NCBI RefSeq assembly: GCF_053078305.1 | Contig: NZ_CP166879.1 | DNA length: 64,000 nucleotides | Direction: 5' to 3' (one strand) | Part shown: positions 6,707 through 57,995 of the stretch, piece by piece | Position numbering within the stretch: position 1 is the first letter of the stretch | Layout of the letters: every line of letters begins with the position of its first letter | Position numbers and translations under genes: made by a program | Notes under the pieces: generated by a model | What the model saw: only the letters and a program-made list of their open reading frames with translations | What the model was told of the DNA's origin: nothing | The model's database searches: none

Positions 6707-8905
6707 TTATCTCCTGCGCAACAATCTTAACGCATTCGCTGTCACCAGCACCGTCGCACCCGTATCTGCCAGCACCGCCAGCCATAGTCCGGTCATTCCT
6801 AACAGCGTGGTGACGAGGAAGATCCCTTTCAGCCCCAGCGCAATAGTGATGTTCTGGCGGATATTGGCGTGAGTGGCGCGTGCCAGTTCAATCATTTGCA
6901 CCAGACCGCGCAGGTGGTTATGGGTTAATGCTGCGTCGGCGGTTTCCAGCGCCACGTCTGTGCCGCTGCCCATTGCAATCCCGATGGCGGCAGCTTTCAT
7001 CGCTGGCGCGTCGTTAATACCATCACCGACCATCGCCAGCGGCGCATGTTGATTCAGCTCGGTTACCGCTTTGACTTTATCTTCCGGCAATAGGCCCGCT
7101 TTAAATTCCAGCCCCAGTTCCCCGGCGATTGCCGCCGCTGCGCGTGGATTATCGCCGGTGAGGATCACTCCTTTAACCCCCAGCGCGTTCAGTTCACTGA
7201 TGGCAGTTGCAGCATCGGCGCGCAGGGTATCCTGTAACGCAATGACACCAAGCACGTCATCGTTACGTACTACCAGCACTACCGTTTGCCCGGCGCTTTC
7301 CAGTTCGTTAATTAAACCAGCAAATGCATCAGCGGGATGTTTCCCGGCAGAGCAAATCAATACGCGCTCACCGTTAACCTGCGCTTCAATGCCAGACCCG
7401 ACCAGCGCCCGCTGTGATTCGGCGGCGGGAATGGCGAGTGCAGCAACCTGTGCTTCGCGCACGATGGCCTGCGCCAGTGGATGCGTCGCGCCTTGCTCGA
7501 CCGCCGCCGCCAGTGTCAGCAGTTCAGATTCACTAATACCCGTTGCCGGATGAATCGCGGTAACGCGCGGTTTACCGACGGTCAGCGTACCGGTTTTATC
7601 AAACGCCACCTGGGTAACACGACCTAGCTGCTCCAGCGCCGCACCGCCTTTAATTAACGCCCCACGACGTGCCGCTGCTGCCAGCCCGGAGGTAATCGCC
7701 GCGGGCGTGGAGATAACTAACGCACACGGGCAGCCAATCAGCAGCAGCGTCAGGCCTTTATAAATCCACTCTTGCCAGCTGGCGGCAAACAGCAGCGGCG
7801 GCACCAGCGTTACCAGCAGGGCGACGGCCATAATCGCTGGCGTATAAATACGGCTGAAACGGTCAATAAACCGCTCAATGGGAGCGCGACGCTCTTCGGC
7901 TTCTTCGATCAGTTTCAGAATCCGGTCAATGGCGCTGGCTCCCGGTTCGGACAATACTTCCAACGTCACCAGACGGTCTACGCTGGTGGCGCCTGCAGGA
8001 ACTTTATCGCCCGTCGCACGCTCCACCGGAATGGATTCGCCGGTCAGGGCGCTTTCATCAAAACTGGCAAAGGGTGAGAGCAGTTTACCGTCGGCAGGCA
8101 AACGCCCACCCGCCGCAACTTCAATCACATCGCCAGGGCGCAGGCTGTTAATTGCCACCTCTTCACGCTCACCGTTACGCAGGCGCGTGGCGTTTTCTGG
8201 TTTCAGCGCCATTAACGCGCTGACGCCCTGACGCGCGCGGCTGGCGGCCCAACCTTCTAGTCGTTCACCAATCAAAAACAGCAGCAACACCATCGCAGCT
8301 TCAGCCGTTGCGCCAATAAACAGCGCACCAATAGCGGCTACGCTCATTAACGTTTCAATGGCGAAGTAACTGCCTGATTTGATCAGCCGTAATGCCTGAC
8401 GAGCAATCGGGTACAGCCCAACCAGCGTGGTCGCGATAAACGCCAGTTGCCCGAACGGATGATTGAACTGCTCCAGACCCCAGCTGATTGCCATCATCAC
8501 GATTAGCGTAATCAGCGGCAGATTCTCTTTCAGGCGCGATTCTTGTTGTTCTTCGGCGGCCTGTTCATCGCGTAGGGAATAGCCCGCTTTTTGCACCGCA
8601 GATTCAACCTGGGCACGGATGTCATTGTCGGCATCCACCACCAGTTTTTCGGTGGCGAACAACACCTGCACCTGATTCACGCCTGCAAGCTGGCGCACGG
8701 CGTTTTCTACCTTGCGCGCACAGGCGGCGCAGTCCATGCCGCTGACTTTCCAGCTATAGCGGGTGCCGGAGACGTTTTCAGAGAGCGTTGGCGTGCTGGA
8801 ACATGCGCCGTCGCAGCAACAGTCGTTGGCGTTCTGTACCGTGGTTAGCGGTTTGAACGCAGCAAATTGAGGGGCTTTCTTGCCGTGATTGTCAGGAGTC
8901 GACAT
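6707..8905 (-). CDS. zntA: Zn/Cd/Pb-translocating P1B-type ATPase
   Basis: 732 aa with N-terminal GMDCAAC metal-binding motif, CPC transmembrane motif, DKTGTLT phosphorylation site and GDGINDAPA hinge. Confidence 0.97.
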   Translation of the reverse strand: MSTPDNHGKKAPQFAAFKPLTTVQNANDCCCDGACSSTPTLSENVSGTRYSWKVSGMDCAACARKVENAVRQLAGVNQVQVLFATEKLVVDADNDIRAQVESAVQKAGYSLRDEQAAEEQQESRLKENLPLITLIVMMAISWGLEQFNHPFGQLAFIATTLVGLYPIARQALRLIKSGSYFAIETLMSVAAIGALFIGATAEAAMVLLLFLIGERLEGWAASRARQGVSALMALKPENATRLRNGEREEVAINSLRPGDVIEVAAGGRLPADGKLLSPFASFDESALTGESIPVERATGDKVPAGATSVDRLVTLEVLSEPGASAIDRILKLIEEAEERRAPIERFIDRFSRIYTPAIMAVALLVTLVPPLLFAASWQEWIYKGLTLLLIGCPCALVISTPAAITSGLAAAARRGALIKGGAALEQLGRVTQVAFDKTGTLTVGKPRVTAIHPATGISESELLTLAAAVEQGATHPLAQAIVREAQVAALAIPAAESQRALVGSGIEAQVNGERVLICSAGKHPADAFAGLINELESAGQTVVLVVRNDDVLGVIALQDTLRADAATAISELNALGVKGVILTGDNPRAAAAIAGELGLEFKAGLLPEDKVKAVTELNQHAPLAMVGDGINDAPAMKAAAIGIAMGSGTDVALETADAALTHNHLRGLVQMIELARATHANIRQNITIALGLKGIFLVTTLLGMTGLWLAVLADTGATVLVTANALRLLRRR

Positions 8906-8947
8906 GGCATCCTCCGGTTAAGTTTTTTCTCATTAACCGAAGGATAC

Positions 8948-8969
8948 ACTCTGGAGTCGACTCCAGAGT
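8948..8969 (-). promoter_or_regulatory. ZntR (MerR-type) operator: perfect 22-bp palindrome inside the zntA promoter spacer
   Basis: ACTCTGGAGTCGACTCCAGAGT is a perfect inverted repeat. On the zntA strand it is flanked by TTGACT (-35) and TATCCT (-10) with a 20-bp spacer, the MerR-family hallmark. Confidence 0.85.
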
Positions 8970-8978
8970 CAAGTTTTA

Positions 8979-9605
8979 TCAGAGATACAGCGAGCGGACG
9001 ATGAGGAAGTGACCGGCAAAGTAGCAGGCCGCAGCAATCGCGTTATCCGCACGGAAGCGTCGGCGATAGTGGCTACCCAGCCAGACAAAGTTACTGATAA
9101 ACAGCAACGAAGCGCCGACAAACGCAGAGAGTGCCGGAGCGGTCGGACGGAAGAACCACAGTTCACCTGCCAGCCACACCATCACCAGCGTCATGCCGAT
9201 AAACGTGCAGATAGGCCAACGATACTCTTCCAGCCGCGTCCAGATAATCGCCAGTAACAGCGCGCCCAGAACCAGCAGTACCAACGGCAGAGGCCAGAAG
9301 AAAGAGAGCGTCATCTGACTGGCGAAATAGATGGTGTACAGCAGGTGCGAGAGGAAAAACGCGCCGATGGCGTACATCAGACGTTGACGTGGCAACAGGG
9401 TTAGCGCATCGCCCAGCAGTGAGGCGCACAGCCCTGCCAGCACCAGATAGCTAATGGCGTCGAACATCGGCGCTTGCCAGGCCAGTAACAACAGGAGAAG
9501 AAGGGTTAACGGTTTAAACACCCAGCGTTGCCAGGTTGGCCCACGATACGATGCATCCACAGATAGCCATGCGGAAAGACAGACAGCGATAAACGACCAA
9601 AGCAT
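8979..9605 (-). CDS. yhhN: YhhN-family inner membrane protein
   Basis: 208-aa multi-TM protein; synteny. Confidence 0.85.
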
Positions 9606-15430: not shown

Positions 15431-15451
15431 TTTCCGCTATTAAGCAGAGAA

Positions 15452-34407: not shown

Positions 34408-34497
34408 GCGATCAGGAAGACCCTCGCGGAGAACCTGAAAGCACGACATTGCTCACATTGCTTCCAGTATTACTTAGCCAGCCGGGTGCTGGCTTTT
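34408..34497 (+). ncRNA. ryhB: Iron-responsive small RNA RyhB
   Basis: GCGATCAGGAAGACCCTCGCGGAGAACCTGAAAGCACGACATTGCTCACATTGCTTCCAGTATTACTTAGCCAGCCGGGTGCTGGCTTTT matches the RyhB sequence as I recall it, ending in its intrinsic terminator hairpin plus U-run. Located between yhhY and yhhX as in K-12. Confidence 0.92.
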
Positions 34498-34619
34498 TTT
34501 TTGATCTTTCGTTCTCAATTTATCCTCGGGAAGTGCTTGTGTTCGTTATGCGCACTCCAGTAGGAACCACGTCCGCTTTGCGCTAAGGTGTAAATAACCA
34601 CCTTAAAAAGGACGAAATC

Positions 34620-41940: not shown

Positions 41941-43142
41941 TGAATCTTTCAGCCAATGCACAAGCAACTCTCCTGCTAACCAGCGATTTTTCTCGCGCGG
42001 CGGCGAGTGAGTATAAACCTCTTAGTAATAGTGAATGGGGGAAGTTTGCATTATGGCTGAAGCACCAACGTATCAGTCCCGCCGAGCTTCTGGTGCCGCA
42101 ACCGCAAGAGAAACTTACAGGCTGGAGCGATCCGCGTATTTCTCAGGAGCGTATTCTTGGCTTGCTGGCGCGTGGTCATAGTCTGGCGTTGGCGGTAGAT
42201 AAGTGGCAACGCGCCGGTTTATGGATCTTAACCCGCGGAGATGCTGATTATCCCGTTCGCTTGAAAAACCGATTGCGAACGGATGCACCTCCCGTTTTAT
42301 TTGGCTGCGGGAATAAAGCATTACTGCAAGCGGAAGGTATGGCGATTGTTGGCTCGCGAGATGCTCCGACTGACGATTTGCGCTATACCCAACAACTGGC
42401 CGCGAAACTGGCCCAACAGGGGATTTGCGTTATCTCTGGTGGTGCGCGAGGTATTGATGAATGTGCAATGGCGTCGGTACTGGAGGCCGGGGGAACTGCC
42501 GTTGGCGTATTAGCTGATAGCTTGTTAAAAACGAGTACGTTAGTGAAATGGCGTGAAGGGCTTATAGCAGGCAACCTGGTGTTGATTTCGCCGTTTTACC
42601 CAGAGGTACGTTTCACCGTCGGCAATGCGATGGCGCGAAATAAATATATTTATTGCCTTGCTGAAAGCGCAATGGTTGTACGTGCGGGAATGACCGGTGG
42701 AACGATAACCGGGGCGATGGAGGCATTAAAACATCAGTGGCTGCCTGTGCAGGTTAAACCAAATCAGGATATGCAATCAGCCAATTCACGATTAGTAGAA
42801 AATGGGGCGTCATGGAGTGCTGAACAGGCTGAGAATGTGACGATCAGACTGCCAGACGTTCCTGGGCTGATGTATGACAGAGCACTCCGTAACGCTCAAC
42901 CAGAACTGTTTTCGCTGCATGAAGATGACGCAAATTACGCAGTAATGCCCGCGTATACGCCTGTCGATTTTTATCAACTCTTTGTGGCGGAACTGGCGAT
43001 CCTTGCAAAGGAATCGATAAGTATTGAAAGGCTGGCGTCTTGTACTGGTTTAACCATCGAACAAATTAGTGTGTGGCTGAACCGCGCAGAAGAAGAGGGA
43101 AGGGTTATCCGATTGGGCGAAGGTCATTATCAGTTCAGGTAA
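41940..43142 (+). CDS. DprA/Smf-like (SLOG-type Rossmann) protein, coupled to the upstream helicase; accessory relative to K-12
   Basis: Start ATG overlaps the helicase stop (TGATG). About 400 aa with a DprA-like Rossmann core (GSRDAPTDDLRYTQQLAAKLAQQGICVISGGARGIDECAMASVLEAGGTAVGVLADSL ... FTVGNAMARNKYIYCLAESAMVV) and a C-terminal helical region. The track's upstream extension (41847) lies inside the helicase and is rejected. Confidence 0.75.
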   Translation: MNLSANAQATLLLTSDFSRAAASEYKPLSNSEWGKFALWLKHQRISPAELLVPQPQEKLTGWSDPRISQERILGLLARGHSLALAVDKWQRAGLWILTRGDADYPVRLKNRLRTDAPPVLFGCGNKALLQAEGMAIVGSRDAPTDDLRYTQQLAAKLAQQGICVISGGARGIDECAMASVLEAGGTAVGVLADSLLKTSTLVKWREGLIAGNLVLISPFYPEVRFTVGNAMARNKYIYCLAESAMVVRAGMTGGTITGAMEALKHQWLPVQVKPNQDMQSANSRLVENGASWSAEQAENVTIRLPDVPGLMYDRALRNAQPELFSLHEDDANYAVMPAYTPVDFYQLFVAELAILAKESISIERLASCTGLTIEQISVWLNRAEEEGRVIRLGEGHYQFR

Positions 43143-57857: not shown

Positions 57858-57995
57858 AACGTGGCGCTTTGTTCATGCCTGATGCGGCGTGAACGCCTTA
57901 TCAGGCCTACAAAATCATGCAAATTCAACATATTGCATAAACCACGTAGGCCTGATAAGCGTAGCGCATCAGGCAATTTTGTGTTTGTCATCAGT
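57858..57995. repeat. REP/BIME palindromic units between the accessory module and glpD
   Basis: GCCTGATGCGGCGTGAACGCCTTATCAGGCCTACA and inverted TAGGCCTGATAAGCGTAGCGCATCAGGCA. Confidence 0.85.

Follow-up and report, generated by a model that had tools for sequence, protein, structure and literature searches.

A perfect 22-bp palindrome upstream of zntA in an Escherichia coli O157:H7-like sequence corresponds to the known ZntR operator of PzntA

Introduction

The promoter PzntA of Escherichia coli K-12 and its ZntR operator go back to Brocklehurst et al. (1999) and Outten et al. (1999), as cited in PMC3431237 and PMC1526738. According to the group that described ZntR, the -35 element of this promoter is TTGACT and its spacer measures 20 bp (PMC3431237), and the published ZntR consensus, which reads exactly ACTCTGGAGTCGACTCCAGAGT, is placed "within a 20 bp promoter spacer" (PMC1526738). 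The region that ZntR protects from DNase I covers the -35 element, the spacer and the -10 element, as it does for PbrR, MerR and CueR (PMC3431237), and a spacer of 20 bp is required for activation of the ZntR type (PMC4486848). Without ZntR, the promoter has a low constitutive activity; at low zinc it is repressed by up to about 2-fold, more strongly when there is more ZntR, and at high zinc it is activated about 10-fold (PMC9189660). The last source gives the spacer as 19 bp, against the 20 bp of PMC1526738, PMC3431237 and PMC7911910. A Zur site at PzntA has also been considered, and according to PMC11618457 none has been identified at the zntA promoter.

ZntR is a MerR-family sensor, and the distortion mechanism of this family, together with the geometry of spacer length on which it depends, is set out in PMC9909328. 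The MerR-controlled promoter PmerT of Tn21 and Tn501 has the same -35 hexamer as PzntA, TTGACT (PMC3431237), and in both promoters a dyad fills an over-long spacer, the metal-free regulator represses, and the metal-bound form activates by distorting the DNA (PMC7911910, PMC9909328). The two differ in that the spacer of PmerT is 19 bp and that of PzntA 20 bp, in the sequence and spacing of the dyad, and in the position of the regulator gene, since merR lies adjacent to PmerT and is divergently transcribed whereas zntR is unlinked to zntA. PcopA of E. coli, under CueR, likewise combines a MerR-family sensor, a spacer operator and a P-type efflux ATPase, but it has a 19-bp spacer, a different dyad and a specificity for monovalent metals; the cryo-EM activation complexes of CueR (6LDI, 6XH7) are the best structural model for the kinking and underwinding of the operator (PMC9909328). 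The closest solved relatives of ZntR are of the CadR/PbrR type (CadR 6JGV, E = 1.3e-24). At a Hyphomicrobium locus of this type (L010), TTGACC and a dyad precede a gene for a Cd/Zn/Pb ATPase, but the dyad there is odd, with 21 bp (9-3-9), and the spacer is 19 bp, in contrast to the even, 22-bp dyad and 20-bp spacer of PzntA.

The present study is concerned with a stretch of 64,000 nucleotides from contig NZ_CP166879.1 (assembly GCF_053078305.1), referred to below as the window, in which an earlier note had described a zntA promoter with a perfect ZntR palindrome.

Results

Organization of the promoter region

The features of the locus, in window coordinates and in the order in which they are read on the minus strand, are as follows.

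9605..8979, minus strand: yhhN (lysoplasmalogenase), upstream of zntA and read in the same direction; its TGA ends at 8979
8972..8967, minus strand: -35 hexamer TTGACT, five of six matches to TTGACA; the operator begins with its final ACT
8948..8969: ZntR operator, the perfect 22-bp dyad ACTCTGGAGTCGACTCCAGAGT (11 + 11), centred between 8958 and 8959
8966..8947, minus strand: spacer CTGGAGTCGACTCCAGAGTG, exactly 20 bp by count
8946..8941, minus strand: -10 hexamer TATCCT, four of six matches to TATAAT
8908..8946, minus strand: second inverted repeat, 14 bp with an 11-nt loop
8932..8936, minus strand: probable transcription start, at the A at 8934, 7 nt past the -10 hexamer
8915..8911, minus strand: Shine-Dalgarno sequence GGAGG of zntA, 5 nt ahead of the ATG, as read from the sequence
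8905..6707, minus strand: zntA, full-length coding sequence (732 aa) for a P-type ATPase that exports Zn(II)/Cd(II)/Pb(II)

The stop codon of yhhN is followed by 6 nt (TAAAAC) and then directly by the -35 hexamer, so that the palindrome begins only 9 nt beyond yhhN. The start of transcription at about 8934 is what the usual sigma-70 geometry would predict. The site shows the arrangement of a MerR-type promoter: TTGACT and TATCCT are separated by 20 bp, at the upper end of the over-long range of 19–20 bp, a dyad operator occupies this spacer at 8948–8969, and a metal efflux gene is driven, the ATG of zntA (8905) lying 35 nt downstream of the -10 hexamer. With regard to the 19 bp stated in PMC9189660, the count between the two hexamers in this sequence is unambiguously 20 bp. 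A promoter scan of 8600–9300 found none with a spacer of 16–18 bp, and as these were the only spacers it allowed, its silence at PzntA was not counted against the promoter.

The dyad covers 19 of the 20 spacer positions together with three positions of the -35 hexamer, and it stops 1 bp short of the -10 hexamer. The earlier note was thus correct in its hexamers, its 20-bp spacer and its perfect 22-bp palindrome, but a dyad of this length is too long to fit between hexamers separated by 20 bp, and its placement there has to be amended, since ACT is shared with the -35 element. Similarly, the range given for the promoter, 8930–8985, contains it but is wider than the promoter itself, which occupies 8941–8972.

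The gene at 8905..6707 carries the annotation zntA in matching E. coli records. Its product matches the NCBIfam model NF033775 over profile positions 1–732 of 732 with 1448.7 bits (cut-off 1240), and the motifs CCCDG, GMDCAAC, CPC, DKTGT and GDGIND are intact. Downstream of zntA are tusA and yhhQ, as in annotated E. coli chromosomes. The tight junction between yhhN and zntA (8973–8981, minus strand) recurs in Citrobacter and Enterobacter, and a transcriptome study of Yersinia pestis treated yhhN-zntA as one co-regulated unit (PMC2231364).

The palindrome

The operator is the longest perfect palindrome of the window, its 11-bp arms being followed by arms of 8 bp in the runner-up. It matches the ZntR consensus at 22 of 22 positions and is present as a single copy with zero mismatches, while none of 100 shuffled sequences held a copy even when up to two mismatches were tolerated. 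The next-best copy in the window, at 15451, has six mismatches and was judged to be a chance occurrence. Analytically, 0.015 palindromes with 11-bp arms are expected per 64 kb, and arms of at least 11 bp appeared in three of 300 first-order Markov simulations of the window, so a palindrome of 22 bp is rare by composition alone (about 1%). Shorter ones are not: perfect palindromes with arms of at least 7 bp number four, the operator included, against 5.1 expected at random, and the three others, with arms of 7–8 bp, lie at 42646, 11061 and 39593.

The 9-mer GTCGACTCC occurs twice on the minus strand, at 8953–8961, where it lies in the middle and right half of the operator, and at 8895–8903, where it begins at the G of the zntA start codon (ATGTCGACTCC). 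The repetition probably arises by coincidence from the MSTPD with which the protein begins.

Identity with K-12 and conservation within E. coli

Promoter, operator, leader, Shine-Dalgarno sequence and start codon are base-for-base the same as in K-12 MG1655. Over the 131 nt compared, which run from the last part of yhhN to the beginning of zntA, a single base differs, a C/G change within yhhN, at about 9003, that looks synonymous; between this promoter and the PzntA/ZntR operator of K-12, everything is the same and nothing is different. Strain TR01 of E. coli O157:H7 matches the 201 bp around the promoter at 100% identity as well. Among 5424 complete E. coli genomes, the 50-bp core at 8936–8985 is identical in 5397, chromosomal every time, and the remaining 27 deviate somewhere within it. 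In one rare variant, that of strain 2022H048 (L085:61-110), C is replaced by T in the right half-site at the equivalent of 8953, by which CTCCAGAGT becomes CTCTAGAGT and the perfect dyad is broken.

Because of this identity, the experimental literature on PzntA of K-12 applies directly, and this bears on the question of which regulator uses the dyad. E. coli has several MerR paralogues whose promoters share the same architecture (PMC9909328), and nothing in the window names the regulator, so that one might think of CueR or SoxR, or of an unrelated repressor, as the protein that binds here. The site does not differ, however, from the one in K-12 for which ZntR binding and footprints, and a zntR-dependent induction by Zn, Cd and Pb, have been reported (PMC3431237, PMC9189660, PMC1526738), and assignment of the dyad to another regulator is accordingly highly improbable.

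Orthologous promoters

A protein-guided scan with one genome per species found at least five close gamma-proteobacterial orthologues of zntA, the motif MVGDGIND being widespread. Because there were five close orthologues among the matches listed, the footprint described here rests on few species. The 20-bp spacing is kept in six orthologous promoters. In Citrobacter werkmanii and in an Enterobacter, the operator is identical while the flanking non-coding bases are different, and the GGAGG Shine-Dalgarno sequence is retained in both genera; the -10 hexamer of the Enterobacter is CATACT, with the operator unchanged. Across the orthologues, the hexamer at this spacing is CATACT, TAGAGT, TACACT or TATAGT. 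The operators of more distant zntA promoters are ACTCTGGAGTAGGCTCCAAAGT in Photorhabdus, ACCTTGGAGTAGGCTCCAAGGT in Vibrio bivalvicida and ACCTTAGACATTACTCCAAGGT in a Shewanella sp., and in all three TTGAC(T/C), a 20-bp spacer and TAnnnT stand immediately before the ATPase gene. In the Vibrio operator, TC has become CT in the left half-site and GA has become AG in the right one, and such a paired change is what is predicted for a site bound by a dimer.

These data allow one alternative to be judged, that the palindrome, with its SalI site (GTCGAC), arose by chance near promoter-like hexamers. Some support for it could be drawn from the simulations, in which about 1% of 64-kb sequences held an equally long perfect palindrome. 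Its position relative to the promoter nevertheless makes a chance origin untenable: the geometry is exactly that of a MerR promoter and it lies before the cognate efflux gene, ACTCTGGAGTCGACTCCAGAGT equals the published ZntR consensus (PMC1526738), and the operator is the same throughout those 5397 E. coli genomes and in Citrobacter and Enterobacter, where the non-coding bases around it have changed. Chance can practically be dismissed.

Operator-like sites in metagenomes

A DNA-pattern scan of metagenomes was made with a degenerate dyad that left out the centre of the E. coli operator, and it returned 80 loci (L086-L165) with 58 distinct 25-mers. A TAnnnT hexamer was found at a distance of 20 bp in 52 of the 80 and at 19 bp in 10, and any other offset from 14 to 33 accounted for three loci at most. 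At the first variable half-site position, the bases of the two arms were complementary in 62% of the distinct sites as compared to 40% after shuffling, a value that none of 5000 shuffles reached; at the second, the figures were 57% and 41%, and 20 of 5000 shuffles reached 57%. A conserved spacer and symmetric change of the half-sites, as in MerR-type operators, are thus seen in the six orthologues and in the 80 metagenomic sites.

The first proteins encoded downstream of these sites (73 distinct) included 34 MerR regulators, 10 with HMA domains, six P-type ATPases, six thioredoxin-like proteins and three zf_CopZ proteins, so that by context alone this class of operator is tied to MerR regulators and metal handling. 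Dyads of this class, TTGAC-NN-TGGAGT-NNN-CTCCA-NN-GT, are found widely in metagenomes of environmental origin, most often ahead of the gene for the MerR-family protein itself (34 of 73) and less often ahead of those for zf_CopZ or small, thioredoxin-like proteins. In a subset, marked by TTGACA...AATGT, the spacing is 19 bp.

A palindrome so close to the end of a gene could also act as RNA, that is, as an intrinsic terminator of yhhN or of antisense transcription, or as a stability element, and not be an operator at all. Its transcript on the zntA strand would form a hairpin whose stem is 9 bp and whose loop is 4 nt (-14.9 kcal/mol, z = -3.26), the distances to yhhN are those noted above (9 nt from the stop codon to the palindrome, 6 nt to the -35 hexamer), and a terminator scan flags the palindrome on the plus strand, where CAAGTTTTAT comes after it. 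The plus strand, however, is antisense to zntA and no co-directional gene reads into the palindrome. On the yhhN/zntA strand the stem is followed by GUGUAUCCUUCGG, without a U-tract, and the scan detected no terminator-like site on this strand between the two genes; the combination of a G+C-rich stem and a U-tract on the transcribed strand, by which an intrinsic terminator is recognized, is therefore absent. Nor would a terminator require the exact 20-bp separation of two hexamers that is kept from E. coli to Shewanella, or the conservation of the half-sites TGGAGT...ACTCCA while the centre varies, and it leaves the association with MerR-family genes unexplained. A role as an RNA hairpin in place of an operator is very unlikely.

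zntR and metal regulation in this strain

A tblastn search of the window for ZntR or a close MerR paralogue gave nothing better than E = 0.96. In MG1655, zntR and zntA are about 167 kb apart. Complete E. coli genomes have zntR in 5425 of 5426 cases, so that this genome very probably has it too. Since the gene lies outside the window, metal regulation of PzntA in this strain is a matter of strong inference. The earlier description of the locus as intact holds for the cis elements and for zntA, and its assignment to the MerR-family architecture is borne out by the geometry, by the identity with MG1655, by the full-length ZntA and by the orthologous promoters; its statement that the palindrome confirms metal regulation in this strain goes further than a locus without its regulator gene allows.

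Discussion

The site at 8941–8972 can be identified, with a probability of about 0.97, as PzntA, the sigma-70 promoter of zntA with a single ZntR operator. Judged by its sequence it is a feature already known, the PzntA/ZntR operator in its wild-type form, and being base-for-base identical to that of K-12 it is real but ordinary. For annotation, its value is confined to showing that zntA and its cis-regulatory region are of wild type in this E. coli O157:H7-like sequence.

The manner in which the promoter would operate follows the picture drawn for K-12. The spacer exceeds the optimum by 3 bp, so that for sigma regions 4 and 2 the distance between the hexamers is too great by about 10 Angstrom and their phase is off by roughly 100 degrees, and for these reasons PzntA is weak on its own. 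For the identical sequence in K-12 it is established that a ZntR dimer occupies the 22-bp dyad from the side of the DNA that faces away from RNA polymerase (PMC9909328, PMC9189660). In its metal-free state it holds the promoter in a poor conformation, with slight repression, and once Zn(II), Cd(II) or Pb(II) is bound at its cysteine/histidine sites, the centre of the operator is kinked and underwound, a distortion that brings the hexamers back into register and switches transcription on. In this strain, ZntR would be supplied in trans, presumably from a gene outside the window. In the PDB copy searched, ZntR is represented by residues 43–141 (1Q08), without a complex with DNA or with RNA polymerase, the nearest DNA and polymerase complexes being those of CadR and CueR; for this reason the geometry of distortion over 20 bp is an extrapolation that draws on footprinting and on CueR, BmrR and CadR. 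The structural interest of the operator lies here, in how a 20-bp spacer, in contrast to the 19 bp of MerR, CueR and CadR, would be realigned.

The second inverted repeat of the locus involves the promoter in a different way. The segment UAUCCUUCGGUUAA (8946..8933), the -10 hexamer extended downstream by 8 nt, can base-pair with UUAACCGGAGGAUG (8921..8908), a segment that includes the Shine-Dalgarno sequence. Folded as RNA, the hairpin has a predicted energy of -21.1 kcal/mol (z = -4.79), equalled by none of 200 shuffles, and the corresponding values are -23.4 kcal/mol (z = -5.07) in Citrobacter and -24.0 kcal/mol (z = -5.19) in Enterobacter, where the loops and the tops of the stems differ and the hairpin is kept. 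Of 5425 E. coli genomes, 5388 carry the same sequence over this region, and related arrangements occur in metagenomes, at L121 and L112, both Enterobacterales-like, and at L160. That such a hairpin might be a general trait of the operator family was considered and rejected, the median z of -0.27 in 84 promoters being equal to that of controls 300 nt downstream, and it appears to be confined to the zntA leaders of Enterobacterales.

Transcripts from PzntA would be without the 5' arm of this hairpin, because a sigma-70 start must lie past the anti-Shine-Dalgarno segment, and a transcript from 8934 is predicted to be essentially unstructured (-1.1 kcal/mol), which would leave its ribosome-binding site free. 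Transcripts that read through from yhhN would carry both arms, as no terminator intervenes, and in these the hairpin would hide the Shine-Dalgarno sequence and silence the translation of zntA. It is possible, if rather doubtful at present, that the hairpin in this way insulates zntA translation from metal-independent read-through of yhhN and so represents an undescribed layer of control. The odd CC of the -10 hexamer TATCCT would then serve both the promoter and the hairpin. The transposase genes of IS10 and IS50 are protected from outside transcription in a similar way. If functional, the hairpin would be a small, neat case of a promoter element that doubles as a translational insulator.

The hairpin was not found described in the literature on yhhN together with zntA, and an Rfam search gave no known RNA family at the promoter locus. 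Elsewhere in the window, and unrelated to the zntA promoter, two sRNAs scored above their Rfam gathering thresholds, RyhB at 34437–34501 (plus strand, 83.1 bits) and ES036/CssrF at 57911–57953 (plus strand, 39.3 bits).
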